DNA of 64,000 nucleotides, from assembly GCA_947646915.1 (NCBI GenBank), contig CANSII010000004.1, positions 3,214 through 67,213 of the forward strand, read 5' to 3'. Shown piece by piece: positions 3,028 through 62,643 of this stretch; the first letter of the stretch is position 1; each line of letters begins with the position of its first letter. A model generated the notes under the pieces. It was not told the origin of the DNA and made no database searches. It saw only the letters and a program-made list of their open reading frames with translations. Origin of the DNA: an uncultured Clostridium sp. (GTDB lineage Bacteria; Bacillota; Clostridia; TANB77; CAG-508). The translations under genes were made by a program, and so were the position numbers.

Positions 3028-4212
3028 TTATTTATCTTGTAAGCATTCTATTCCTGGCAATTTCTTACCTTCTAAAAATTCAAGTGATGCTCCTCCACCT
3101 GTAGATATATGTGTCATTTTATCTGATAATCCTGCTTTTTCTACAGCTGCTCCTGAGTCTCCTCCTCCTATTATTGTTGTTGCATCTAATTCAGCTAATT
3201 CTTTTGCAATAGCATTTGTTCCTACTGCAAATTGATCAAATTCAAATAATCCAACTGGTCCATTCCATATTACTGTTTTTGCATTTTTTAATTCTTTTTT
3301 AAACATTTCAATTGTTTTTTCTCCAATGTCAAATCCTTCCCAATCATCAGGAATTTCTGTCCATGCAACTGTTTTACTTTCTGTATCTGGTTTAAATTCT
3401 TTTCCAACCTTTGTATCTACTGGTAATAGCAGTTTTACTCCTTTTTGTTTTGCTTTTTCCATTGCTTCTAATGCAAGATTAATTTTATCTACTTCACATA
3501 GTGAATTTCCTACATTATATCCTTGTGCTTTAAAAAATGTATATGCCATTCCTCCACCTATCATTAATGTATCAACTTTGTCTAATAAACTATCTATTAC
3601 TCCTATTTTGTCTGATACTTTTGCTCCTCCAAGTATTGCCATAAATGGTCTTTCTGGATTATTTATTGCATCTCCTAATACTTTTAATTCTTTTTCTATT
3701 AAAAATCCAGATACTGCTGGTATATATTCCGCAATTCCTGCTGTTGAAGCATGTGCTCTATGTGCTGCTCCAAATGCGTCATTTACAAAAATTTCTGCCA
3801 TTGTTGCTAATTCTTTTGCAAATTGTGGTTCATTATCTGTTTCTTCTCTATGGAATCTTACATTTTCAAGTAGTACTATTTCTCCTTCTTTTAAATTTGC
3901 TACTTTATTTTTGGCATCTTCTCCTATTACATCATTTGCCATTATTACTTCTTTTCCCAATAATTTTGATAATTCTTTTGCTACTGGTTTTAATGAATAT
4001 TCTGGTTTTACTTCTCCTTTTGGTCTTCCTAAGTGTGATGCTAATATTATTTTACAGTTTTGTTCTAATAAATATTTTATCGTTGGTAATGCTGCAACTA
4101 TTCTTGTATTGTCTGTTATGTTTTTGTTTTCGTCCATTGGTACATTAAAGTCACATCTTACAAATACTTTCTTTCCTTTTAATTCAATGTCTTTTACAGT
4201 TTTTTTATTCAT
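3028..4212 (-). CDS. pgk: phosphoglycerate kinase
   Basis: 394 aa. Motifs [39 protein letters not shown]. Directly upstream of tpiA. Confidence 0.97.
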
Positions 4213-4649
4213 TTTTAATCTTCCTTTCTTGGGAATAGAATTTTCGCTTTTTCCCCTTTTATTTTATTAGCTTTTCCAATTTTTTTTAGATAATTCCATT
4301 CTATACCAAAAAAGAATACTTTTCAAGTATTCTTTTAATATTTTCAAAATGTTTAAAATTAAACCCTTGATATTTATTACGATAAAATAGTATAATAGTA
4401 TTGGAGATTGATCTATCTAAGGTCTTAGCAGGTTTCTTTGAAAAGATAGTGATTTTTATACATAATCGCAAGATATTGAAATCATTATAGATAATTACAT
4501 AGACATACATAATTATAATAGTACTGATACAATAGAATTTATATCAAATAACCTTGTTTCTTCCATTATTTTTACCTCTTTTCTACACATAAATTAACTC
4601 CTTTAGTATCATTTCATCAGTAGAATTCTAAATATTATTCATAAGTCCA

Positions 4650-4772
4650 ACACATTTTAATGTGTCTCTACAATATCAATTTTCAGTATCTTAAACGCCT
4701 TGGAAAACGGAACTGCAAAATATATATCTTTTTTCTAAATATTATATTTTTGCAAAAAACCGAAACTTAAAT
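4650..4772 (+). repeat. Intergenic core-hairpin repeat, copy 1 (3' half of core plus O-type right arm)
   Basis: AATGTGTCTCTACAATATCAATTTTCAGTATCTTAAACGCCTTGGAAAACGGAACTG, then ATATATATCTTTTTTCTAAATATTATATTTTTGCAAAAAACCGAAACTTAA. Matches the copies at 28117 and 62431. Confidence 0.8.
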
Positions 4773-4847: not shown

Positions 4848-5642
4848 ATGCCAAAATTAACAAAAGAAAAAGAAGTTCTAAATAATACAAAAAAGAAATC
4901 AACTGCAAAAATAAATTCATCTTCTAAAACCACAAAAAAAGTGTCTAATTCAAATAAATCTAATTCAAAAAATCTTAAAAATAACTCAACAAAATCTACT
5001 AAAAGAGATACAATAAAAAAAGCAAAATCATCTACAAAGAAAAATAATTCTATTGTTGAATATTATGATTTACCATACAGGTATAATCAAACTATTGTAA
5101 AAATATTATCACAAACACCAAAATCATTATTTGTTTACTGGGATATTTCTGATGAAGATAGAGAAAACTATAAATTACAATTTGGAGAAAATTTTTTTGA
5201 AAATACAAAACCTGTGCTTATTATCTATAATGACACTTTGCACTACAGTTTTGAAGTTGATATAAATGATTTTGCAAATAGTTGGTATTTACATGTAAAT
5301 GATAGTAAATCTGATTATAGAATTGAACTTGGAAGACGCCCAATAAATAATAATGAAAAAATAGAAAAAAAATATGTTTATATAACATCTTCAAATAGAA
5401 TTGAAGCTCCAAATGATCACATTTTGTTCAATAAAGATCAAAAAATGATTTATTTTAGAAATGTAAAAACTAATCAAGAAACAAAAAAGTCAGTTTCTAA
5501 TTTGTCTTTTATTAGAAATATGGGTAAAATTTATAATATTTATGATTTATATAAAAAGATTTATAAAAATGAAAATGTAGAAGAAATTTATGATTTATCA
5601 AATCCATCATCACATCCATCTTCTCAACTTAACAATATATGA
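4848..5642 (+). CDS. DUF4912-like protein with K/S/N-rich N-terminus
   Basis: 264 aa, RBS GGGAGG before the ATG. The segment DLPYRYNQTIVKILSQTPKSLFVYWDISDED resembles DUF4912, which commonly precedes GH57 branching enzymes (from memory). Confidence 0.6.
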   Translation: MPKLTKEKEVLNNTKKKSTAKINSSSKTTKKVSNSNKSNSKNLKNNSTKSTKRDTIKKAKSSTKKNNSIVEYYDLPYRYNQTIVKILSQTPKSLFVYWDISDEDRENYKLQFGENFFENTKPVLIIYNDTLHYSFEVDINDFANSWYLHVNDSKSDYRIELGRRPINNNEKIEKKYVYITSSNRIEAPNDHILFNKDQKMIYFRNVKTNQETKKSVSNLSFIRNMGKIYNIYDLYKKIYKNENVEEIYDLSNPSSHPSSQLNNI

Positions 5643-7258: not shown

Positions 7259-7402
7259 GCCTAATAATATGAATTTTCAAAAATCCCGTTCTCCAAGGCG
7301 TTTAAAATAGTAAAAACTCAAAGTAAATAGACACACTATAACGGATTAAAGTAAATAACGACTCATAGTCGAACTCATTTTTTCAAATTAATATTATTAG
7401 GC
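7259..7402 (-). repeat. Intergenic core-hairpin repeat, copy 2 (complete, P-type arms)
   Basis: GCCTAATAATATGAATTTTCAAAAA ... core in reverse orientation ... TTTTTTCAAATTAATATTATTAGGC. The arms form a perfect-to-near-perfect terminal inverted repeat. Confidence 0.85.
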
Positions 7403-7538
7403 TTTAATTAATTTTATTTTTTCATTTATAATCATTACTGTTTTTTTCTTAAGTCAAGCTCCTTTTTTAGTAATCTGCATATTATAATGTATAACTTTTG
7501 GAAATTTAGTAGATACTAATATGGAGGGGAGAAAATTC

Positions 7539-11152: not shown

Positions 11153-12461
<1,309 letters not shown>

Positions 12462-28116: not shown

Positions 28117-28329
28117 TTAAGTTTCGATTTTTTATTTTTCAAACTTTATTATAGAAAAAAGATATATATTATAAAGCGAGTTTGACAGTAAGTAGTTATT
28201 AACTTTAAGTAATTATAGTGTGTCTCTAAGGTTTGATTGTTCAGTATCTTAAACGCCTTGGAAAACAGAGCTGAATAATATATATCTTTTTTCTAAATAT
28301 TATATTTTTTGCAAAAAGTCGAAACTTAA
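28117..28329 (+). repeat. Intergenic core-hairpin repeat, copy 6 (complete, two-tier O-type arms)
   Basis: TTAAGTTTCGATTTTTT...TAGAAAAAAGATATATAT-TATAAAGCGAGTTTGACAG...TTATAGTGTGTCTCTAAGG...CAGTATCTTAAACGCCTTGGAAAACAGAGCTGAATA-ATATATATCTTTTTTCTA...AAAAAGTCGAAACTTAA. Confidence 0.85.
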
Positions 28330-30520: not shown

Positions 30521-30592
30521 ATCTATTCTCTCTCCTTCACTTTGCTCACTTCATCTTTTAAAGTATTTCTTTAGAAATTAAAACTATTAAAT

Positions 30593-30703
30593 ATCTAATA
30601 ATATAATTTAAGTAAATGAGTTCGACCATGAGTTGTTTTTTACTTTAAGTCATTATAATGTGTCTCTAAAATATAATTGTTCAGTATTTTAAATGCCTTG
30701 GAT
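30593..30703 (+). repeat. Intergenic core-hairpin repeat, copy 7 (P-like left arm plus core; right arm missing)
   Basis: ATCTAATAATATAATTTAAGTAAATGAGTTCGACCATGAGTTG...CATTATAATGTGTCTCTAAAATATAATTGTTCAGTATTTTAAATGCCTTGGA. Confidence 0.75.
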
Positions 30704-31146: not shown

Positions 31147-31389
31147 TTTAAGTTTGGGTTTTTTAAGATTTTCATTTTAAGTTTTGGCATTTTGCAAAAA
31201 ATATATTATATAGAGAAAAGATATATATTATTCAGCTCTGTTTTCCAAGGTGTTTAAGATATTGAACATTCAAACCTTAGAGACACACTATAATGACTTA
31301 AAGTGAATAACGACTCACTGTCAAACTCGCTTTATAATATATATCTTTTTTCTATAATAAAGTTTGAAAAATAAAAAACCGAGGCTTAA
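31147..31389 (-). repeat. Intergenic core-hairpin repeat, copy 8 (complete O-type, inverted relative to copy 6; one terminal arm duplicated)
   Basis: Its reverse complement aligns end to end with 28117..28329 (roughly 90 percent identity by eye). There is an extra TTAAGTTTGGGTTTTTT at 31147. Confidence 0.85.
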
Positions 31390-31478: not shown

Positions 31479-32942
31479 TTATCTAATTTTATATTCCAAA
31501 TATACATTTTCATCAATCTGTTTTAATTTTTCTAGCTGCCTCTTAGTAATATTTATAACATTGCCACAACAAGGTTTAAAATCTTTATTACCATATACTA
31601 ACCAAATAATATTTTCCCTTTTTAAATCTTCTTTTGGCATTGTTCCAGGGCAAGGATAACCATCAGTAAAAACTATTTTATTTATCTCTCTTTTTTTGGT
31701 AAATGACCTAACTGCTAAATCCCAATCTTCTGTCCATGCTGAACTTCCACGAGCTTGCTCAGGAATAGTAAAGTTATCTATATCTTTTACATTTTTTATA
31801 TTTACAAATCCCCAAAATTTTTCATTGAAACATGCTACTCTTAATTTTGATTGTTTTAATAGTGGTTTCAATTGTCTTAAAAATGCTTTTACTAATTCTA
31901 AACTTACTGAACCTGAAACATCAATCATAATTTCTGTTTCAGCCTCATCTTCTATGTCATATTCTTCTAATCTATATGCATAATTATTTTCTGCAATAGA
32001 TCTACGATTACTCCAAATTGTTTCAGATTTTTCTATTTCTTTTCTTACCATAGTTTTCCAATCAATTTCTTGACTACTATGCCCTATATTTTCTAATTTA
32101 ATGTTTTTATCATTACTTATTATACTCTTTTTAGTCTTTTCACTATTTTTCTTAAATTTTTCTCTTTTTTCTTTTCTATTATTTTCAAATTCCTCTCTTT
32201 CATCAAAAGTTGTCCCTGTTTCATTTTCTACTTCATTTTTACTTGAAGCTTGTTCTTTTGATTTTTTTACTTGTTTTGAACTTTTTTCCATTTCTTTATC
32301 TTCTTGTTGTTGCTTCTTAAAAGCCTCCTCCCATAAACTATGGTCATCACCTTGCCCTTTTTCTTTATCCTGATCTTGCTTTTGTTCATTACCTTGCCCT
32401 TTTTCTTGCTCCTGATCTTGCTTTTGTTCATTACCTTGCCCGTTTTCTTGCTCCTGATCTTGCTTTTGTTCATTACCTTGCCCGTTTTCTTGCTCCTGAT
32501 CTTGCTTTTGTTCATTATTTTTTCTTTCTAATAATATCTGATAAAATTCCTCTGCTGAATAATTTAATGCTTCTGGCATATTTACATATCCTTTTTTAAC
32601 AGTAAAACCATCTCTTTCTAAATTTGCATTTATAATAGCATCAGTTGCTATATTCCAAAGCTCATCATCTCTCTTTTTCCCATTTTTATCCAATAATCTA
32701 TACATATGTAAAAATTTAATGTGCAATATTTCATGTGCAATTAAAAATAATTTATCATTTTCATTCAAACTTGCAAAATAGTTTGGATCAACATAAATAT
32801 TTTCTCCATCAGTTGCTGCAGTATGATATTTTAAGTTTTCACTATACTCAATATTGATATTAGCTACATCACTACCAAATCTTGGATATTTTGCTAACAT
32901 TTTTCGTTTAATATCATAAATCAAATCTGTATTAGTATCCAT
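31479..32942 (-). CDS. HExxH metallopeptidase-like + vWA (MIDAS DxSGS) protein, DUF2201-type partner of MoxR-like ATPases
   Basis: 487 aa, RBS AAGGAGG. N-terminal LIAHEILHIKFLH, a central E/K/Q-rich linker with four 14-aa repeats, and a C-terminal IMIDVSGSVS vWA-like domain. Confidence 0.75.
   Translation of the reverse strand: MDTNTDLIYDIKRKMLAKYPRFGSDVANINIEYSENLKYHTAATDGENIYVDPNYFASLNENDKLFLIAHEILHIKFLHMYRLLDKNGKKRDDELWNIATDAIINANLERDGFTVKKGYVNMPEALNYSAEEFYQILLERKNNEQKQDQEQENGQGNEQKQDQEQENGQGNEQKQDQEQEKGQGNEQKQDQDKEKGQGDDHSLWEEAFKKQQQEDKEMEKSSKQVKKSKEQASSKNEVENETGTTFDEREEFENNRKEKREKFKKNSEKTKKSIISNDKNIKLENIGHSSQEIDWKTMVRKEIEKSETIWSNRRSIAENNYAYRLEEYDIEDEAETEIMIDVSGSVSLELVKAFLRQLKPLLKQSKLRVACFNEKFWGFVNIKNVKDIDNFTIPEQARGSSAWTEDWDLAVRSFTKKREINKIVFTDGYPCPGTMPKEDLKRENIIWLVYGNKDFKPCCGNVINITKRQLEKLKQIDENVYLEYKIR
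32349..32516. repeat. 4 x 42-bp in-frame tandem repeat inside the vWA gene
   Basis: Unit ACCTTGCCC(T/G)TTTTCTTGCTCCTGATCTTGCTTTTGTTCATT at 32349, 32391, 32433 and 32475. Encodes (NEQKQDQEQENGQG)n on the minus strand. Confidence 0.9.
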
Positions 32943-32974: not shown

Positions 32975-33340
32975 TTAAAATGCAACTACACAAAAATGAT
33001 ATAGTTCTTTTGATATTTTTTTTAATGATTCTTTATCTTCAACAGTAAGGACTATAATCACATCTTTTGGTAAATTATAGCCATAATATTCTCTGTCTTT
33101 AACTATTTGGTAATATTTGTTTTGTGTATTTTCATCTATTTTATCTATTCCAATAATTATAAAATAATTTAATTCTTCATTATTAAATATTTTTTCTTTA
33201 AAATAGGTAATTAATTCATTATCATTTATATTTGCATTAATAACAACTTTTGAATTTAACTTATTATAATCTTCATTTGAAATTACAACACAAGTTGCAT
33301 TACAGCCTTTTTGTAATTCTATTAATTCTTTATCAATCAT
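32975..33340 (-). CDS. hypothetical protein (DGR/AAA+ operon member)
   Basis: 121 aa, RBS AGGAGA. Co-directional between the 152-aa ORF and the vWA gene. Confidence 0.5.
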   Translation of the reverse strand: MIDKELIELQKGCNATCVVISNEDYNKLNSKVVINANINDNELITYFKEKIFNNEELNYFIIIGIDKIDENTQNKYYQIVKDREYYGYNLPKDVIIVLTVEDKESLKKISKELYHFCVVAF

Positions 33341-33438: not shown

Positions 33439-33897
33439 CTATAATGTAAAAAAATTTAATATTTTGTTAATAACTTTTTTAAATAAACTTTCTTTATTAC
33501 AAATTGCCATACTTGTCCCTGTTTCTCTTACATTTTGAACTTTTACTAATTGCTGACTTTCTATTTTATCTTTAAAAATATTGTTCACATCATACTTTTC
33601 ATTTACTTCTACTTTTTCTATATGTTTTTCATGAATTAAATTTTTATATTTTATTCGTTCTGATTCATTGCACCACCAAGTAATATAAATAAATCCTAAA
33701 AGCTCTCTAGTTTGTTTTCTTAAATTAAAACCATCTAATGGATATTCATGATTAAAATTTACTTGATAACTTTTATTTGATATTTCTGTTAAAAACTTTA
33801 TAAAGCTTTGTGGTATTTTACTTACAGCGTCTTTATCTGTATGATTTAGTATATCTAATACTTCTACTGCTGCTTCACTATATTCAATATTTGTCAT
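33439..33897 (-). CDS. hypothetical protein (DGR/AAA+ operon member)
   Basis: 152 aa from ATG 33897 (GAGGTG RBS). Overlaps the stop of the AAA+ target gene by 14 nt, suggesting translational coupling. Confidence 0.5.
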   Translation of the reverse strand: MTNIEYSEAAVEVLDILNHTDKDAVSKIPQSFIKFLTEISNKSYQVNFNHEYPLDGFNLRKQTRELLGFIYITWWCNESERIKYKNLIHEKHIEKVEVNEKYDVNNIFKDKIESQQLVKVQNVRETGTSMAICNKESLFKKVINKILNFFTL

Positions 33898-36100
33898 TTT
33901 CTTCACCTCTATCTTTATCTTTTGTTAAAAAAGTATTATACATTTGTCCAATTTTTGTATATGATGATACTCCATCTTGCGCATATTCTTTTGTTTCGTT
34001 TTCATTATGTAATGATGAAGATAATTCTTGTAATTCACTTATTTTTTCCATTCTTCTTTCATCTTTTCCAGCCCAATATATATCATAAATTGACAAATAT
34101 TCTGGATCACAATATTTTCTAATAAATTCTCTACATACTTCAACTTGACTTTCATTAGCAGTTAATAATGCCATTATATATGCATATCTTTCATTTATAT
34201 TTTCAGGTAAATCTGCTTCACTATATCCTTTTCCGATTCCTTCTACTACTTCTTCTGGTGTTAATGTTGGAAGATTATAATAATCAAAAAACTCCTCTGC
34301 CCATTCTAAACGTAATTTTGAGTCTATTGATCTTTTAAGTATATCCTCAACATCTTTTCCTTCATATTTTCCTGATTCCAAGTTTTTTTCAAAATTATAT
34401 AATGTATTTGAAATTGATGCCCAACCACGTGGATCATTCGTCCTTCCCTTACAATCATTTTCATCAAGCTTTTGTTCTCCTACTTCAGGCTCTTCGTAAA
34501 AATATCCCATATTTTTGATATCTTCACTTTTTCCATTATTCAAATAATTTGATAATATATATCCTATAACCATTGGATGAATTTTTCGTGGAATTGCATA
34601 ATCTGTTATCCACTCTCCTACTTTTGGTTTCATATCTAATATATGGTCAAATCTCTTCTCTAATGGCTCTGCTAATTCTTCTGCAACATTTGAATATTTC
34701 TTTTGATTTCCAGTTGCTACAACTACTACATTATCTGGTAATTTTAATCCATTACCTATTTCTACTATTCTATTTAATACTAAGGTATATACTAAACTTT
34801 GAACAGCAGGTTTAACATTCAACAGCTCATCTAACAAAATTACTACTTTTTTATCACTTGTCTTAGATCTTTTATAAACTGTATCAGCTATTTTATATAT
34901 ATTCTGAATATTTTCTTCAATTAATTTTTTCTCTTCTTCAGTTGCTTCTTGCATAATAGCTGTTTTGGCAAAATCTGGTGGAATGCTTTGTCCTGTTTGT
35001 AAATTAGTTGAACCTACTACTTTTTCTGGAAACATGTTGTTTGTTAATTTCATATATATTAAATCTGGATATAATGATTTAATTCTTTCTGTTTTTCCTA
35101 TTCCAGATGGTCCTCTAAGTAATACTGATTCTCCTGATTCAATCCAATTATGTATTATTTCAGTATCAGTCATTTTAGTTCTATCAGTATAATTAGTTTT
35201 ATCTGGATTTAATTTCTCTATTCTAGACTTCTTTTTCTTATTTTCTTCTGTTTTCTCAGGTTCTTTTTCTAAACTTCCTATACTTTTTACCTGTTCTAAA
35301 TCTTTAGAAAAATTTTCATCCATAAATTCTTTTATAAATACTTTGTCAAAATTCTCTGTTTCATAATCACTTATCTCATTAAATTGTACACCTGCAAAAA
35401 TTATTTTATCAGCTAACATAATTCTTGCTTTTTCATCAACTAACCATTTTACTGGAGCAACTTCAATCCAAACATAATCTCCCCTATTATATTCTTCTCC
35501 ATTTGAAAGAGTAACTTTATTATAACATGAATTTGCTTTAACTCTTATATATCTCTTTCCATTATACTCATATTCTATATGAACTTGTGGTTCAAATGAT
35601 TCATCATATTCATCATATTTTTTTGAATCTGTTATATAACTATTTCCATTTAGTGAAATAGTTTTGTTTTTATATTCTTTTTCTAACTTTCTTTGCATGT
35701 CCTTTGAAGCAGCTTTTTGAGGATAATATCCATATTCTACTTCAAGGAAACCATCACTTGCTCTTCTCCCACTCTCTCCGTTCGTGGGGATTGATCTGAT
35801 TGATGAGAACGGTAAAGCTGGGCGTGCCCCAACATTACGTCTATCAACTCTACATCAAAGTCTAGAACCATTATAGTCAACCGCGCGCGCGTCGTGATCG
35901 TCATCATCAGATTTAGTCCAATATATGCCAGTTCTTCCCTCTAAAAAACTATCATCTCCTATATGATCATCATTAGAAACTATACCACCTAAAAGTATAG
36001 AAAAATCTGTGATTGCTGCCTTTACACCTCTTTTTTTTAATATATCTAATTGTTCATCCTCAAAGCATTGCTCTTGTGTCAAAAAAGTAAATTTTTCCAT
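33884..36100 (-). CDS. DGR target: N-terminal variable (VR-bearing) module fused to a MoxR/AAA_5-like AAA+ ATPase; one in-frame TGA at 35855..35857
   Basis: ORFs 35855..36100 (81 aa, strong AGGAGG RBS) and 33884..35698 (604 aa, no good RBS) are in the same frame. A single TGA and 52 open codons separate them. Walker A LLRGPSGIGKTE, Walker B VVILLDELLN. The VR covers codons 70-95. No signal peptide or TM. Confidence 0.85.
35818..35893 (-). repeat. DGR variable repeat (VR)
   Basis: 76-bp gapless match to 37513..37588. 9 of the 10 mismatches fall at TR adenines on the coding strand. Starts with GACGCGCGCGCGG and ends with GGGGCACGCCCAG. Confidence 0.9.
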
Positions 36101-36198
36101 ATCAATTTCCTCCTAATAATTATACTACTATATTTTTACAAAATTCTCTTTTTTATTTTTTTCCATTTTATCACATCTATTATTTTTTTGGAATAGTT

Positions 36199-37239
36199 TT
36201 ACATTTTTTTTTGTGGAAAAGTATCATTTTTTAATTTTTGACTTTCTTTTGTATCTTTTATATGATTATAAAAAGCATTTTTTCTAATGTAAACATATTC
36301 TTCATCAACAATATCTTTATTTCTCAATTTATTTAATACTTTTAAGTGTTTTATTAATCTTTGTTTAGATGATGCACGTAATTTTCTTGTTATACTACCA
36401 TTTTCATTTAAAATATGTCTATATCCCAAAAAGTCTATTCCATTTTTTACAATTCCTATTTGTGTTTTTTGATTAAGTTCCAATTTTAACTCTTGTTTAC
36501 ACTTTTCTTCAATCTTAAAAAGAGCATTTTGTAAAAAGCTCTTATCTCTATGAATTAATATCATATCATCCATATAACGAACATATCCTTTTACTCTTAA
36601 TTCCTCTTTAATAAATCTATCAATTACATTTAGATAAAAAAGTGCAAACCATTGACTTGATTGATTTCCAAGTGGTAATCCAATATCTGCATTATTAGGT
36701 TGCTCTTTTATTAATTTTTCTATTAACCACATCTCATCACTTGAAAATTTTATATTTTTCAATAAATTTAATAAAACTTCATGATTTATACTTTGAAAAT
36801 ACTTTTTAATGTCACATTTTAAAAAATAAATTTTATGATTTTGCTCTTTTCTATATTCATCTCTTAAAAACTTTTCTAGCCTTTTAATTGCAAATGTAGT
36901 CCCTTTACCTTTTCTACAAGCTGCATTATCAAATATTAGTTTTTTCTCTATTTTATGTTTTAATATTACATCACAAAAACATTTTATAACTACTCTATCT
37001 TTAAAAGGTAATGCTTCTATTATTCTTTCTTTTGGTTCATGTATTAAAAATACCTTATATTTTCCTAATTTATACTTTTTAGAAGTTATTTCTTGTATTA
37101 AATTACTAATATTAGTAGATAAACTTGCTTCAAATCTAATTACTTCCCCTTTATGTTGCTTTGATTTTCTACAGTCTTTATATGCTTCATATAAATTGTT
37201 AAATGTAAAAATTTCTTCTAAAATCATATTTAAGTTCAT
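36199..37239 (-). CDS. DGR-type reverse transcriptase
   Basis: 346 aa. RT motifs include LPLGNQSSQWFALFYLN (the DGR-characteristic G...SQ in motif 4) and YVRYMDDMIL (YxDD). No maturase or endonuclease domains. Confidence 0.93.
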   Translation of the reverse strand: MNLNMILEEIFTFNNLYEAYKDCRKSKQHKGEVIRFEASLSTNISNLIQEITSKKYKLGKYKVFLIHEPKERIIEALPFKDRVVIKCFCDVILKHKIEKKLIFDNAACRKGKGTTFAIKRLEKFLRDEYRKEQNHKIYFLKCDIKKYFQSINHEVLLNLLKNIKFSSDEMWLIEKLIKEQPNNADIGLPLGNQSSQWFALFYLNVIDRFIKEELRVKGYVRYMDDMILIHRDKSFLQNALFKIEEKCKQELKLELNQKTQIGIVKNGIDFLGYRHILNENGSITRKLRASSKQRLIKHLKVLNKLRNKDIVDEEYVYIRKNAFYNHIKDTKESQKLKNDTFPQKKM

Positions 37240-37600
37240 TCCCTTCGTTTGCGATTATTATTCTTTGAAAATAAAAAGTTTCATAGTGTTTCCTTCCCAA
37301 CACAATCAAAAAGAATGCCCCTTATAACTCACAAAAAATAGTTTTCTATTTGTTGTTTGTGTAAGCATTCATATTCTTCCACCGCACTATTTCTTTAGCG
37401 GTTAGAAAAGAGAAAAATTCCTTCACTTTAAAATACTGATATATTTACCTTAAAATATATTTCTCTGATTCTTTTTTAAACCCACTTTTAAAAGGATTTA
37501 CCAAAAGTGAATCTGGGCGAGCCCCAACATTACGTTTATTAACTTTATATCAATTTCTATTACCATTATAGTTAACCGCGCGCGCGTCAAAGCAGACGGG
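37240..37600 (-). ncRNA. DGR template RNA (TR 37513..37588 plus TR-RT spacer)
   Basis: Non-coding interval between avd and RT containing the TR. On the RNA, a hairpin CACTTTTGG...AAAAGTG (about 37484..37510) immediately follows the TR, and a second hairpin CCGC/GCGG lies near 37381..37405. Confidence 0.6.
37513..37588 (-). repeat. DGR template repeat (TR)
   Basis: GACGCGCGCGCGGTTAACTATAATGGTAATAGAAATTGATATAAAGTTAATAAACGTAATGTTGGGGCTCGCCCAG on the minus strand. Rich in AAY codons in the target frame. Confidence 0.9.
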
Positions 37601-37659: not shown

Positions 37660-38241
37660 CTAACTTCGTTTTTTCCATCTTTCATCATCACTCTTTTTCC
37701 ATGCTATTGTCAAGTTAATTGCTTCAGATAATTGTAATGAAATTTGCTTGTATTGTTTATTTAGTATACATCCAAAGTTTTCTGCTACCATAGAAACATA
37801 TCCTAATAATTTTAATTTTACTATTGCCTCTTTTTGAAGCTCTTCTCTTTTTACTTTCTTTTCTATTGCATCCATTCTAATAAAATTTGCTTCTAATAAT
37901 ACTTCTAATGTATCAAGACAATAGTTTTGCATTCTATTTACAAATACACCTCTATATTTTTTTGGCGATTTTTCTGTAACTGCAATTGTATATGCTGTTA
38001 GCTTCTTTACTACTGTTATTACCATCAAATCATTTGCATTAAATGGTATTTTATTTATTTCTTCTAACTCATTATCATTTGCTACACTTTCAGTAACTTG
38101 CTTTTTATTAAACCTTTTATTCTCTGCTGTAGCAATTGCTTGCTTAACAGCAACTTTATCTTCTACACTATTTTCAGTTCCATTGTAATTTTCTAATTTT
38201 TTAGGTATTTTCAAATTACTATCTCTACTTACTTGTATCAT
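37660..38241 (-). CDS. avd: DGR accessory variability determinant (Avd-like four-helix-bundle protein) with ~70-aa N-terminal extension
   Basis: 193 aa, RBS AAGGAG. The C-terminal ~120 aa (VVKKLTAYTIAVTEKSPKKYRGVFVNRMQNYCLDTLEVLLEAN...basic tail WKKSDDERWKKRS) look Avd-like. Located immediately 5' of the TR. Confidence 0.75.
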   Translation of the reverse strand: MIQVSRDSNLKIPKKLENYNGTENSVEDKVAVKQAIATAENKRFNKKQVTESVANDNELEEINKIPFNANDLMVITVVKKLTAYTIAVTEKSPKKYRGVFVNRMQNYCLDTLEVLLEANFIRMDAIEKKVKREELQKEAIVKLKLLGYVSMVAENFGCILNKQYKQISLQLSEAINLTIAWKKSDDERWKKRS

Positions 38242-38407: not shown

Positions 38408-38556
38408 AAAAGGTTATAAATATAATATTTAAATTGAGTTCGACCATGAGTTGTTTTTCACTTTAATCAATTATAGTGTGTATCTAAAATATGAATATTC
38501 AGTATATTAAACACCTTGGAGAAAGGAAATCTTAAATATTATATTTATAACCTTTT
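38408..38556 (+). repeat. Intergenic core-hairpin repeat, copy 9 (complete, Q-type arms)
   Basis: AAAAGGTTATAAATATAATATTTAAATTGAGTTCGACCATGAGTTG...TTATAGTGTGTATCTAAAATATGAATATTCAGTATATTAAACACCTTGGAGAAAGGAAATCTTAAATATTATATTTATAACCTTTT. Confidence 0.85.
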
Positions 38557-38604: not shown

Positions 38605-39294
38605 TTATCTTAAAAACATTATTAATCCAAATACAATAATTTTAAATATAATTAAAGAAAAAATTTGAAAATTAACACATTTAATACCAACATCATTTAA
38701 CTCATCATATTTACTTATCATATTATTAATTTCATCTTTAGAAGAAATTTTTTGATTTTCCATATATTCTTTTGCTAAAAATTTCGCTTTAATCATAGCA
38801 TCATTTTCTAAAAACATTCTAACAGAATACTGTACTAACCCTAATATGGCTAATATAGTTAAAAACATCATACTATTTGGTAAGATGTTAAAAAACTCTA
38901 AAATACAAATTACAAAAAAGTATAAATTAAATATGTTAGAAAATATAAAATTAAACCATAATAATTTTTTGCTTTGTACAGAATGTAAACATTCATGTGC
39001 CAATGTTTGTATTCTTGTAAAATTATTTTTTAAATTGGCTATAAAAATTTTATTTCCCATTACAAAATACATTGTTGTATTTGCATCTTGCTGTTCTTCT
39101 ATTTTTACATCTTCATTTTTTAACATTTTTAAATATGTTTTACATATATCTATATTCTCTGGATATTTTTCAGCTATTTTGTTTAATTCTTCATTTTGTG
39201 TTATCTCTTTTAGTTTATTTACATTTGCACCAAAAACATATTTTAATACGAAAAACATTACCATAACAATAATAAATATAACAAAAAATTCCAT
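38605..39294 (-). CDS. multi-TM protein with HExxH motif (putative membrane zinc metalloprotease)
   Basis: 229 aa from ATG 39294 (RBS CAGGAGGAT). Motif LAHECLHSVQ. The ORF-track extension to 39381 runs into the repeat array and is rejected. Confidence 0.55.
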   Translation of the reverse strand: MEFFVIFIIVMVMFFVLKYVFGANVNKLKEITQNEELNKIAEKYPENIDICKTYLKMLKNEDVKIEEQQDANTTMYFVMGNKIFIANLKNNFTRIQTLAHECLHSVQSKKLLWFNFIFSNIFNLYFFVICILEFFNILPNSMMFLTILAILGLVQYSVRMFLENDAMIKAKFLAKEYMENQKISSKDEINNMISKYDELNDVGIKCVNFQIFSLIIFKIIVFGLIMFLR

Positions 39295-39336
39295 ACATAT
39301 CCTCCTGTTATCTATAAATAAAATATATATTATAAA

Positions 39337-39723
39337 TCCTAATAATATTAATTTGAAAAAACGAGTTTGACAGTGAGTCATTATTCACTCCAACCTTCTA
39401 TAGTGTGTATCTAAAATATGAATATTCCGTGTCTTAAACGCCTTGGAAAACGGAGTTTTTGAAAATTCATATTATTAGGATTTATAATATGAATTTGATA
39501 ATACGAGTTTGACAGTGAATCATTATTCACTCCAACCTTCTATAGTGTGTATCTAAAATATAAATATTCCGTGTCTTAAACGCTTTGAAAAACGGAGTTT
39601 TTGAAAATTCATATTATCAGGATTTATAATATGAATTTGATAATACGAGTTTGACAGTGAATCATTATTCACTCCAACCTTCTATAGTGTGTATCTATAT
39701 TATGAAAATTCATATTATTAGGA
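39337..39723 (+). repeat. Tandem array of three core-hairpin repeat units (copies 10-12, P-type arms, 142-bp period; third unit has a truncated core)
   Basis: Units begin at 39337, 39481 and 39623. Each carries (A/T)CGAGTTTGACAGTGA(G/A)TCATTATTCACTCCAACCTTCTATAGTGTGTATCTA. The first two continue to CGTGTCTTAAACGC(C/T)TTG(G/A)AAAACGGAGTTTTTGAAAATTCATATTAT. Confidence 0.9.
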
Positions 39724-39735
39724 TATAAACTTTAA

Positions 39736-40074
39736 TTATATAGATAACACATCTTTAATTGCATCTCCAATTATTTTATTAACATCAGACAACATAGTAT
39801 TAAACTTTGTTTCAGTCTCAAAAAATCTCTTTGCATCTTGATTTTCCAATAGCTCAATATATAACTGTTGCATTCTTTGATTTTTTTCATCATTAGCCTT
39901 CCCTGTTTGCATTATTTCAATTTGAGCATCATATCTAGCTTTCTCAAATTCACTTATTTTCTTTTTCAATTCAGAATTTAAATCTAAAACTTCTTTAGCC
40001 ATTTTATAATTTACATATTCCTCAGATTGTTTAATCTCCATAGCCAATTTATTTGCTGTATCATATACATTCAT
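39736..40074 (-). CDS. YlbF/YmcA-family regulatory protein (UPF0342-like)
   Basis: 112 aa, all-helical. The N-terminus MNVYDTANKLAMEIKQSEEYVNYKMAKE and overall pattern are typical of the YlbF family. Confidence 0.65.
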   Translation of the reverse strand: MNVYDTANKLAMEIKQSEEYVNYKMAKEVLDLNSELKKKISEFEKARYDAQIEIMQTGKANDEKNQRMQQLYIELLENQDAKRFFETETKFNTMLSDVNKIIGDAIKDVLSI

Positions 40075-40110: not shown

Positions 40111-40252
40111 GATGAATAATATTAATTTGAAAAAATGAGTTCGACCTGAGTCGTTCTTCACTTTAACCAGTTTTAGTGTGTCTCTAAATCAAATTGTTCA
40201 GTATCTTAAACGCCTTGAAGAACGGAATTTTTAAAAATTCATATTATTCAGC
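40111..40252 (+). repeat. Intergenic core-hairpin repeat, copy 13 (complete, P-like arms)
   Basis: GATGAATAATATTAATTTGAAAAAATGAGTTCGACCTGAGTCG...TTTTAGTGTGTCTCTAAATC...TTCAGTATCTTAAACGCCTTGAAGAACGGAATTTTTAAAAATTCATATTATTCAGC. Confidence 0.85.
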
Positions 40253-54351: not shown

Positions 54352-54472
54352 TTAAGTTTCGGTTTTTTATTTTCCAAACTTTATTATAGAAAAAAGATAT
54401 ATATTATAAAGCGAGTTTGATAGTGAATCGTTATTCACTTTAAGTCATCATAGTGTATCTCTATTTTTTTAT
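54352..54472 (+). repeat. Intergenic core-hairpin repeat, copy 14 (O-type left arm plus 5' two-thirds of core)
   Basis: TTAAGTTTCGGTTTTTTATTTTCCAAACTTTATTATAGAAAAAAGATATATATTATAAAGCGAGTTTGATAGTGAATCGTTATTCACTTTAAGTCATCATAGTGTATCTCT. Confidence 0.8.
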
Positions 54473-57776: not shown

Positions 57777-57967
57777 TTTCTCACCCACTTTTTCTTAACT
57801 TGTTCATAGTTTATCATGGATTTCTTTAAAATTTATTTTTGTTTTACGAATACACTGTTTTCTTTTATAAAAATTTACTTTTTTAATTTTATAAATGATT
57901 TTGTCACTTTCATAAAATATTTTAGAAGTTTCATATAAGTTTTATTTCTACACATAAAATACTAAAA

Positions 57968-58090
57968 ATTCAAAGTATAGAAACACATTATAATAGGTTC
58001 AATGGAATTACGACATATTATCAAACTCACTTTGAAATATATATCTTTTTTCTATATTCAAATTTATACAATAAAAAAATCGAAACTTAA
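57968..58090 (-). repeat. Intergenic core-hairpin repeat, copy 15 (O-type arm plus degenerate core, inverted relative to copy 16)
   Basis: Its reverse complement reads TTAAGTTTCGATTTTTTTATTGTATAAATTTGAATATAGAAAAAAGATATATATTTCAAAGTGAGTTTGATAAT...TATTATAATGTGTTTCTATACTTTGAATTT. Same subfamily as 62431..62643. Confidence 0.75.
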
Positions 58091-62430: not shown

Positions 62431-62643
62431 TTAAGTTTTGGTTTTTTCATTTTATAAATTTGATTTTAGAAAAAAGATATATATTTCAAAGTGAGTTCGA
62501 CCATGAGTCATTATTCACTTTAACTTGTTATAATGTGTATCTTTACTTTGAATTTGCAATTTTTTAAACGCCTTGGAGAATGGAACTGGGAAATATATAT
62601 CTTTTTTCTAAATAATATAATTTTGTCAAACGCCGAAACTTAA
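62431..62643 (+). repeat. Intergenic core-hairpin repeat, copy 16 (complete, two-tier O-type arms)
   Basis: TTAAGTTTTGGTTTTTT...TTAGAAAAAAGATATATAT-TTCAAAGTGAGTTCGACCATGAGTCATTATTCACTTTAAC...TTATAATGTGTATCT...TTTTAAACGCCTTGGAGAATGGAACTGGGAA-ATATATATCTTTTTTCTAAA...CGCCGAAACTTAA. Confidence 0.85.

Follow-up and report, generated by a model that had tools for sequence, protein, structure and literature searches.

A stop codon in the template repeat of a probable diversity-generating retroelement that targets an AAA+ ATPase in an uncultured Clostridium

We analyzed a 64,000-nt stretch of DNA (the window) from an uncultured Clostridium sp., positions 3,214 to 67,213 of contig CANSII010000004.1 (assembly GCA_947646915.1), and found a locus that we read, with a probability of about 0.85, as a genuine and intact chromosomal diversity-generating retroelement (DGR) whose target is present as an OFF allele. 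The order of the locus is avd, template repeat (TR), reverse transcriptase (RT) and target gene, and the target encodes a protein with an AAA+ ATPase domain. The variable repeat (VR) in the target carries an in-frame TGA, and this TGA matches a TGA codon of the TR. Elements of this kind are known; the TR-templated stop and the uncommon target, with its module fused to the N-terminus of an ATPase, make this one a variant. Coordinates are those of the window, and the genes of the locus, both repeats, the spacer after the TR and the covarying hairpin described below all lie on the minus strand.

The repeat pair differs at adenines

The TR (37513..37588) is non-coding and 76 nt long, and the VR (35818..35893) covers residues 70-94 of the target gene. 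The two copies align without gaps over the 76 nt with 10 mismatches, of which nine fall on TR adenines (A16G, A28T, A29C, A34C, A35T, A41G, A44G, A49G and A53G) and one does not (T69A). The TR holds 25 adenines, 16 of which are the same in the VR, and six AAY codons. Given 25 A among 76 positions, the probability that at least nine of 10 mismatches fall on A by chance is P=3.2e-4. A degenerate pattern in which each TR adenine was replaced by N matched two sites in the window, the TR and the VR, and none in 100 shuffles. The likeness of the copies stops directly 5' of GACGCG and 3' of CCCAG, and a repeat search lengthens the pair to 82 nt (35812-35893 and 37507-37588).

These results agree with an earlier sequence-only reading of this DNA, which had placed the gapless 76-nt pair at the same coordinates, had counted the nine adenine mismatches plus T69A, the 16 unchanged TR adenines and the six AAY codons exactly as given here, and had seen the similarity end beyond a GC-rich block. 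Read in the frame of the VR, the TR gives DARAVNYNGNRN, then the stop, a TGA at codon 13, and then YKVNKRNVGARP. The TR of the window was found identical in two more assemblies (L001 and L002), and the TRs of the relatives L003 and L072 are near-identical to it and have the same TGA.

A DGR-type RT, an Avd-like gene and a structured spacer accompany the repeats

The RT gene (36199..37239, 346 aa; 342 aa from the start at 37227 chosen by gene callers) is located between the TR and the VR, and its open reading frame (ORF) is intact. The protein matches RVT_1 (E=1e-19) and contains both the motif LGNQSSQ, which is of the DGR type [I/L]GxxxSQ in the fingers, and YMDD, the YxDD catalytic site. The closest solved structure is 8ub7 (E=3.3e-36; the next RT match is at 1e-12), presumably the DGR RT from Bordetella phage BPP-1, the database entry naming its molecule as 'Reverse transcriptase'.

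Directly 5' of the TR, in the window and at the same place in relatives, is a gene for an Avd-like accessory protein of 193 aa (37660..38241). It matches NCBIfam NF033474 (DivGenRetAVD) over residues 73-174 with E=7.7e-07 and Pfam bAvd (PF22296) with E=0.004, both under the curated cut-offs. The spacer that runs from the TR to the RT (about 37383..37512) is conserved and structured: RNAalifold with 19 relatives predicted 27 pairs, 8 of them with compensatory changes, and the fold consists of a long-range helix (ATTCACTTTT/AAAGTGAA), a 9-bp AT hairpin and a variable hairpin. By analogy with BPP-1, the spacer is a candidate for the DGR RNA 'Sp' element.

VR variation in relatives tracks TR adenines

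The earlier reading had called for a comparison of VR polymorphism in sister lineages with the TR adenines. In the 25 usable TR/VR pairs of relatives, we found that the VR differs at 252 of 622 TR-A positions (40.5%) and at 13 of 1203 non-A positions (1.1%). For the protein, we measured variability as column entropy over 118 homologous N-termini and found high entropy (>=1.7 bits) confined to residues 75-77, 79-84, 86-87 and 89, with flanking columns that are invariant or reach at most about 1.3 bits. The variable residues are the codons that carry TR adenines. Furthermore, the window, L072 and L003 have nearly one TR and different VRs. Hence, the shared TR, the differing VRs and the adenine bias in relatives support the DGR reading proposed earlier, to which the intact RT and the Avd-like gene also point.

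It is hardly credible that the pair is instead an ordinary duplication or gene-conversion tract whose copies differ at adenines by chance. Such a tract would fit the shortness of the repeat (76 nt); what speaks against it is the adenine bias, which is significant in the window pair alone and is the same across 25 independent pairs, together with a DGR-clade RT between the copies, an Avd gene beside them, and the conservation across species of an A-rich non-coding copy while the coding copy varies.

Several further arrangements were seen among the relatives. Two paralogous targets about 3 kb apart have identical VRs in L007 (5205 and 8293), L009 (2120 and 5205) and L028 (5208 and 8272), which could reflect simultaneous homing, gene conversion or assembly collapse. 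One TR serves two different VRs in L005, L006, L008 and L012. Small VR indels shift the frame just before the GGARPAL codons in L006 (2102), L039 (5208), L067 (1932) and L073 (4708), and the proteins P0135, P0137, P0138, P0146, P0148 and P0151 come from frameshifted VRs and continue into AMVGLAQLYRSHQS. Such frameshifted VRs could represent another kind of off allele, or else errors made in assembling a heterogeneous region. In L038, a VR-like copy (4948-5023) with TAG at codon 7 and a TR-type upstream flank runs into the target from residue 88. Recombination between TR and VR seems to have deleted the RT here and to have left a decayed locus.

A TGA in the VR cuts the target gene

The target gene (33884..36100) has 738 codons, a strong AGGAGG ribosome-binding site upstream of its start at 36100, and one in-frame TGA (35855..35857). 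This TGA is codon 82 of the gene and codon 13 of the VR, and it is set in AAT TGA TAT in the TR and in CTT TGA TGT in the VR. It leaves two ORFs, one of 81 aa (35855..36100) and one of 604 aa (33884..35698), and the 656 codons that remain after it are open. Judged from its sequence, the target in this genome is a null allele, switched OFF. The earlier translations had printed an asterisk in both repeats; that stop is real, while its truncation of the target had been left undiscussed.

The same TGA allele is present in two other assemblies (L001 and L002, from ERZ14651012 and SRR15730521), and the three assemblies of the window strain share one VR. Mutated positions, A35T and A41G, lie on either side of the TGA and no more than 6 nt from it, so it is no assembly chimera of TR and VR. 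The VR stops of L054, L073 and L088, which are TAA-to-TGA changes of the stop in the TR, are therefore not chimeras either. With three independent assemblies in agreement as well, an assembly chimera of TR and VR was ruled out.

Recoding of the TGA, as Trp (code 4), as Gly (code 25), as selenocysteine or by programmed readthrough, would mean that the target is made full-length, and the frame does run 656 codons past the TGA in a very AT-rich genome. Some related metagenome-assembled genomes (MAGs) are labeled Tenericutes, and Trp (TGG) stands at codon 13 in deeply branching and undiversified relatives. Nevertheless, we consider recoding very improbable. The window uses the standard genetic code: among its 55 long ORFs, TGA is the terminator of 7, and TGG serves for Trp 135 times. 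These statistics rule out an alternative code, and taking TGA as sense adds no more ORF length than taking TAG as sense would suggest. Relatives carry TAA instead of TGA at the same and at other VR codons. Selenocysteine was ruled out by these TAA variants, by the lack of any Rfam hit in the window, selenocysteine insertion sequence (SECIS) elements included, and by the position of the sole conserved hairpin, which at about 67 nt past the TGA is too far for a bacterial SECIS.

Templated stops recur in relatives

The stop is not restricted to the window. Beyond it, we found TGA at TR codon 13 in L003 (VR GGC, gene intact), L072 (VR TGA) and L042 (VR TGT), and in L074, where the TR reads TAA-TGA and the VR is the same. 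TAA was likewise seen in TRs, with codon 13 affected in three relatives (L039, L073 and L158), codon 7 in four (L031, L040, L054 and L089), codon 15 in one (L088) and codon 18 in two (L027 and L075). TGA occupies the same codon of both TR and VR in the window, L001, L002 and L072. Each VR stop with a known TR falls at a codon where that TR has a stop, and in L054, L073 and L088 the VR stop is the mutated TR stop (TAA to TGA). VRs are OFF in the window, L072, L027, L039, L054, L073-75, L088 and L089, and ON despite a TR stop in L003, L042, L031, L040 and L158. Natural populations hold both ON and OFF alleles at codons with a templated TR stop.

When the 81-aa fragment was used as a query, 59 short proteins were found. 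Codon 13 is the point directly before which at least 14 clusters stop, and for others this point is codon 7 or 18. All four short proteins that were traced to contigs proved to have true templated stops (4/4).

Three samples were drawn independently of the state of the VR: a set with a single genome for each GTDB species, a metagenome scan based on the RT, and one viral contig. Of their roughly 25 TRs, 9 contain a stop, TGA or TAA at codons 7, 12, 13, 15 or 18. The VRs that belong to these nine TRs are OFF in five cases and ON in four. Without selection, about 59% OFF is expected, from the 59.5% of TR adenines that are unchanged per position.

Some individual cases stand apart. At L003:6208-6283, the TGA of the TR is opposed by GGC in the VR; the T-to-G change is not an adenine change, and this templated stop may have been rescued by ordinary point mutation. 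In L027, the TR (3534-3609) and the VR (5208-5283) have identical 3' halves, including ACC TAA where related TRs have AAC AAA. These TR changes are of the adenine-mutagenesis type, which hints that some TR stops may stem from gene conversion of the TR by the VR, or from cDNA that homed into the TR itself. A lookup of two Trp-bearing full-length homologues (P0013 and P0005) led to contigs without a TR.

The stop-bearing template coexists with a maintained gene

We placed the stops on an RT tree (neighbor-joining, approximate). The window, L001, L002, L003 and L072 form a TGA clade; L042 and L074 (TGA) and L073 (TAA) diverge below the crown group, in which codon 13 is TAC or AAC; and deeper RT lineages have TGG, TAA, TTT or AAC there. 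On this approximate tree, the codon 13 series TGG, TGA, TAA, TAC, AAC would consist of single-base steps that pass through two stop codons.

Downstream of the VR, the ratio of non-synonymous to synonymous substitution rates (dN/dS) of the target is 0.24-0.35 at dS 0.25-0.70, including pairs of lineages that are currently OFF, and the TGA lineage extends over several species whose target genes are intact. Hence, with the TR stop shared over this range, the stop-bearing template has long coexisted with a maintained gene, and this long coexistence argues against simple decay.

Decay would mean that the target was poisoned when the TR acquired a nonsense mutation by chance, and that the locus is a recent fossil nearing loss. 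This is unlikely, though several observations fit it. The target is truncated here and in two more assemblies with unchanged VR, there is one non-A mismatch in the GC block, the relatives L006, L039, L067 and L073 have frameshifted or indel-bearing VRs, and over half of candidate DGRs look inactivated in the survey of Wu et al. 2018 (PMC5758913). Weighing more heavily on the other side, the TR TGA is common to the window, L003, L072, L042 and L074, over the divergence and with the constraint on open targets given above; the RT and Avd ORFs are intact; the 656 codons past the stop are open in a genome of 25.5% GC; and sister lineages with a TR stop have open VRs (L003, L042, L031, L040 and L158).

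How a templated stop could switch the target

The mechanism that we propose for the DGR follows BPP-1. RT and Avd would copy TR RNA to cDNA, misincorporating opposite adenines, and the cDNA would then replace the VR, with the GC block GGGGC(T/A)CGCCCAG as the 3' limit of transfer. Every retrohoming event would write TGN at VR codon 13: a stop if the A is copied faithfully (about 59% per adenine, family-wide), and Cys or Trp in an open frame if it is miscopied. The window allele would be one that kept the A, so that the target is null while the RT, Avd and the remaining 656 codons are intact, and a further round of retrohoming could reopen the frame.

That the TR stops are a selected feature, which couples hypermutation to a stochastic ON/OFF switch, is a tentative idea that we consider possible rather than probable; the stops may equally be something that selection tolerates. 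If the switch is real, the cytoplasmic AAA+ sensor would fall silent in about 60% of retrohoming events, and the other 40% or so would yield a new open variant. The open variants would gain residues such as Trp that are beyond the reach of AAY codons, and the cost of random binding specificities (e.g. self-reactivity) would be limited while a diversified minority is kept. Adenine mutagenesis would also buffer nonsense codons in the template, allowing passage from a conserved TGG through TGA, TAA and TAC to AAC. If stops exceed the load that is tolerated, this would be phase variation driven by a retroelement, and DGR catalogs would systematically miss such elements.

DGRs have been described as avoiding nonsense codons, though about a third of the templates in this gut-Firmicute family encode a stop. 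A stop 'can never' arise from AAY codons (bioRxiv 2024.11.15.621889), and the misincorporation bias of the DGR RT is said to minimize truncation (PMC12875486). Wu et al. 2018 discarded candidates with premature stops in their survey, in which N-terminal VRs number 3 of 372 (PMC5758913). In the literature that we searched, we found no description of natural TR-templated stops or of phase variation driven by a DGR, which does not prove that none exists. Compared with phase-variable contingency loci (slipped-strand repeats, invertible promoters), the outcome is alike: a programmed, local and presumably reversible mutational process, ON and OFF alleles side by side, and purifying selection. The mechanism differs entirely in that it would be retrohoming of a stop-encoding template, the presumed switching being deduced from comparison of alleles.

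Several points weigh against the reading of the locus as an intact DGR with an OFF allele. Both Avd scores fall under curated cut-offs, as noted. The three assemblies of this particular strain carry one identical VR, and the signs of activity come from the VR diversity of the family. The non-A mismatch in the GC block and the T-to-G change at the stop codon of L003 indicate that ordinary mutation acts as well, and the ON/OFF counts are small (5 against 4). A C-type-lectin fold of the variable module was not confirmed by Foldseek structure search, and when AlphaFold2 (AF2) was run on the isolated 138-aa N-terminal fragment with a shallow alignment, the fragment did not fold (predicted local distance difference test, pLDDT, of 33). 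Finally, the OFF state may be leaky through low-level TGA readthrough or a restart at Met135, the next in-frame start after the TGA; restart is not favored, the ribosome-binding site there being poor (AAAGGA one nt before the ATG).

The boundary of the VR

Both copies contain the GC block, and TR and VR diverge after its CCCAG in all relatives. The sequence-only reading had likened this boundary to an initiation of mutagenic homing (IMH) and IMH* pair. The GC block and the divergence after it stood up; the T/A difference as a conserved IMH/IMH* distinction did not, T69A being restricted to the window lineage. L003 and L072 carry G66T instead, and in most relatives the GC blocks of TR and VR are identical. 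The VR-only single changes in the block (T69A, G66T) suggest, as far as such sequence differences can tell, that transfer ends at, within or before the block. A defined IMH* was not identified.

The earlier reading had also noted a hairpin, CCGTTC-N23-GAACGG (35778..35812). It is present in the sequence, but in relatives it shows no compensatory change and has 15 unpaired cells where it is variable; hence, it was ruled out as a conserved element. A different hairpin overlaps it, about 30 nt downstream of the VR and within coding sequence (35768..35788): a 5-bp stem of CCCAC (35788..35784) and GTGGG (35772..35768) with an 11-nt loop. Of its cells, 95.8% are paired, four of the five pairs are changed on both sides, and 0 of 500 shuffles reach the observed values. 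Some of its compensatory changes are made by non-synonymous codon changes. This hairpin may have a role in target recognition. The hairpins of BPP-1-type DGRs reportedly have a longer stem and a smaller loop.

The target protein

The target begins with a variable module that resembles DUF6273 (about residues 1-100). A region rich in beta structure then extends to about residue 270, and an AAA_5 domain at residues 326-484 and a helical C-terminus complete the protein. AAA_5 (dynein-related/MoxR-type) is matched with E=7.9e-07, and its Walker A motif is GPSGIGKT. The protein is cytoplasmic. We found more than 1400 homologues; among the top 120, those that are not shortened have 734-747 aa. They come from gut metagenomes and from MAGs labeled uncultured Clostridia, Bacilli or Tenericutes, in samples from mouse, rabbit, human, chicken and rumen.

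The AF2 model of P0001, a homologue 83% identical to the target, has pLDDT of about 90-96 over its N-terminal 270 residues. In Foldseek searches of PDB and BFVD, the full-length model found AAA+ proteins only, among them McrB, FtsH and dynein-related/MoxR ATPases of phages, and these matches did not classify the fold of the variable module. A Pfam search with the N-terminal 270 aa of the target gave no match, even at E<=10, and a whole-protein profile of the target gave none among PDB sequences. PADLOC reported at the locus a weak DolB match on the ATPase and generic RT matches only.

A profile of the first 124 residues of the target found 832 representative clusters, and DUF6273 is matched by 6 of 92 distant members of this N-terminal module family. 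The kinship to DUF6273 is thus seen through distant relatives, the target protein itself having no match at the Pfam threshold. In P0331, the match spans profile positions 77-168 of 172, which correspond to window residues of about 1-95. Hence, the VR is at the C-terminal end of the DUF6273 homology. The N-terminal module of about 270 aa, with its 832 representative clusters, is a mobile module. It is duplicated in tandem in some relatives (P0331, residues 1-270 and 281-545), and in P0335, P0336, P0342 and P0343 it is joined to ankyrin repeats or to C-terminal regions without an AAA_5 Pfam record.

Neighboring genes

Two small genes follow the target. One of 155 aa (33439..33906) overlaps the end of the target and is conserved in position in relatives; one of 121 aa (32975..33340) corresponds to a gene of 121-122 aa at the same place in relatives. 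Neither has a match in Pfam, NCBIfam or PADLOC. Next is a 487-aa partner protein (31479..32942), a putative metallopeptidase that matches DUF2201_N (PF13203, E=6.2e-22) and, weakly, the vWA-like DUF2201 (PF09967, E=0.028); PF09967 is recorded for the orthologue in L075. The VR-bearing module may serve as a diversified ligand sensor for the ATPase-peptidase pair. Within the partner gene, a 42-nt tandem repeat is present in five copies (32299-32550); the tract is probably a low-complexity linker between the two domains of the partner.

Directly upstream of avd, 38605-39381 (minus strand) encodes a predicted membrane protein of 258 aa with a weak DUF6782 metallopeptidase-like match; L001, L002 and L003 have a 229-aa gene in its place. 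Chromosomal genes flank the locus (YbeY, DUF3048, YlbF, SecG and RNase R), and they are syntenic in a relative with an 83%-identical target protein.

Relation to known systems

With the prototype DGR of BPP-1 (mtd VR, avd, TR, brt), the element shares adenine-specific TR-to-VR differences, an AAY-rich TR, the RT motif [I/L]GxxxSQ, an Avd gene, a structured spacer after the TR and a GC-rich 3' repeat end with divergence after it; the covarying hairpin downstream of the VR is a candidate counterpart of the one in BPP-1. It differs from BPP-1 in being chromosomal rather than phage-borne, in having its target downstream of the RT, in the 76-nt length of its TR and the in-frame stop within it, and in its hairpin (5 bp, 11-nt loop, about 30 nt away). 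In addition, its VR belongs to the N-terminal part of a cytoplasmic ATPase of 738 aa, whereas the BPP-1 VR is at the C-terminus of a tail fiber.

Also related are the DGR-linked MoxR-vWA ternary conflict systems, in which a DGR diversifies a ligand-binding module whose partners are an AAA+ ATPase of the MoxR type and a vWA-type protein; this module has been predicted to reside in the cytoplasm and proposed to act as a sensor (Kaur et al. 2020, PMC7159879; Dore et al. 2024, PMC10907252). There, the vWA protein bears the variable FGS/CLec domain at its C-terminus, a gene of its own encodes the ATPase, and the hosts are multicellular cyanobacteria and Thiohalocapsa (PMC7159879, PMC10907252). The window likewise has a MoxR-like ATPase and a diversified module, along with a partner whose vWA-like match is weak. 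Unlike in those systems, its ATPase carries the DUF6273-like module as an N-terminal fusion, the vWA protein being without it, its partner combines the DUF2201_N metallopeptidase with the weak vWA-like domain, and its type of host is a low-GC gut Firmicute known only from MAGs. No VMAP, peptidase-effector or EAD domain was detected in the window cassette. The idea of a DGR-diversified intracellular sensor arose from multicellular cyanobacteria and purple sulfur bacteria (PMC7159879, PMC10907252); a DUF6273-like module at the N-terminus of a MoxR-type ATPase would extend it to low-GC gut bacteria.

DUF6273-type DGR targets are known from Faecalibacterium prophages, with the VR at the C-terminal end of DUF6273 (PMC11792537). 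The window target is alike in the place of its VR at the C-terminal end of the DUF6273 homology and in the ending G-x-R-P. It is unlike them in that theirs are phage structural or adhesion proteins and the window has the N-terminal module of an ATPase, and in that the window family shows only the C-terminal half of DUF6273 (positions 77-168).

An intergenic repeat family

An intergenic repeat of about 142 nt with terminal inverted repeats gave 17 BLAST hits in the 64 kb, on both strands, and copies of it lie on both sides of the DGR-target cassette. Its sites are 4634-4711, 7278-7420, 12319-12442, 28173-28270, 30585-30702, 31236-31333, 38436-38527, 39320-39745 (three tandem copies), 40115-40232, 54408-54463, 57965-58028 and 62493-62584. 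It has no match in Rfam or plasmids, and the family looks like miniature inverted-repeat transposable elements (MITE) or repetitive extragenic palindromic (REP) sequences.

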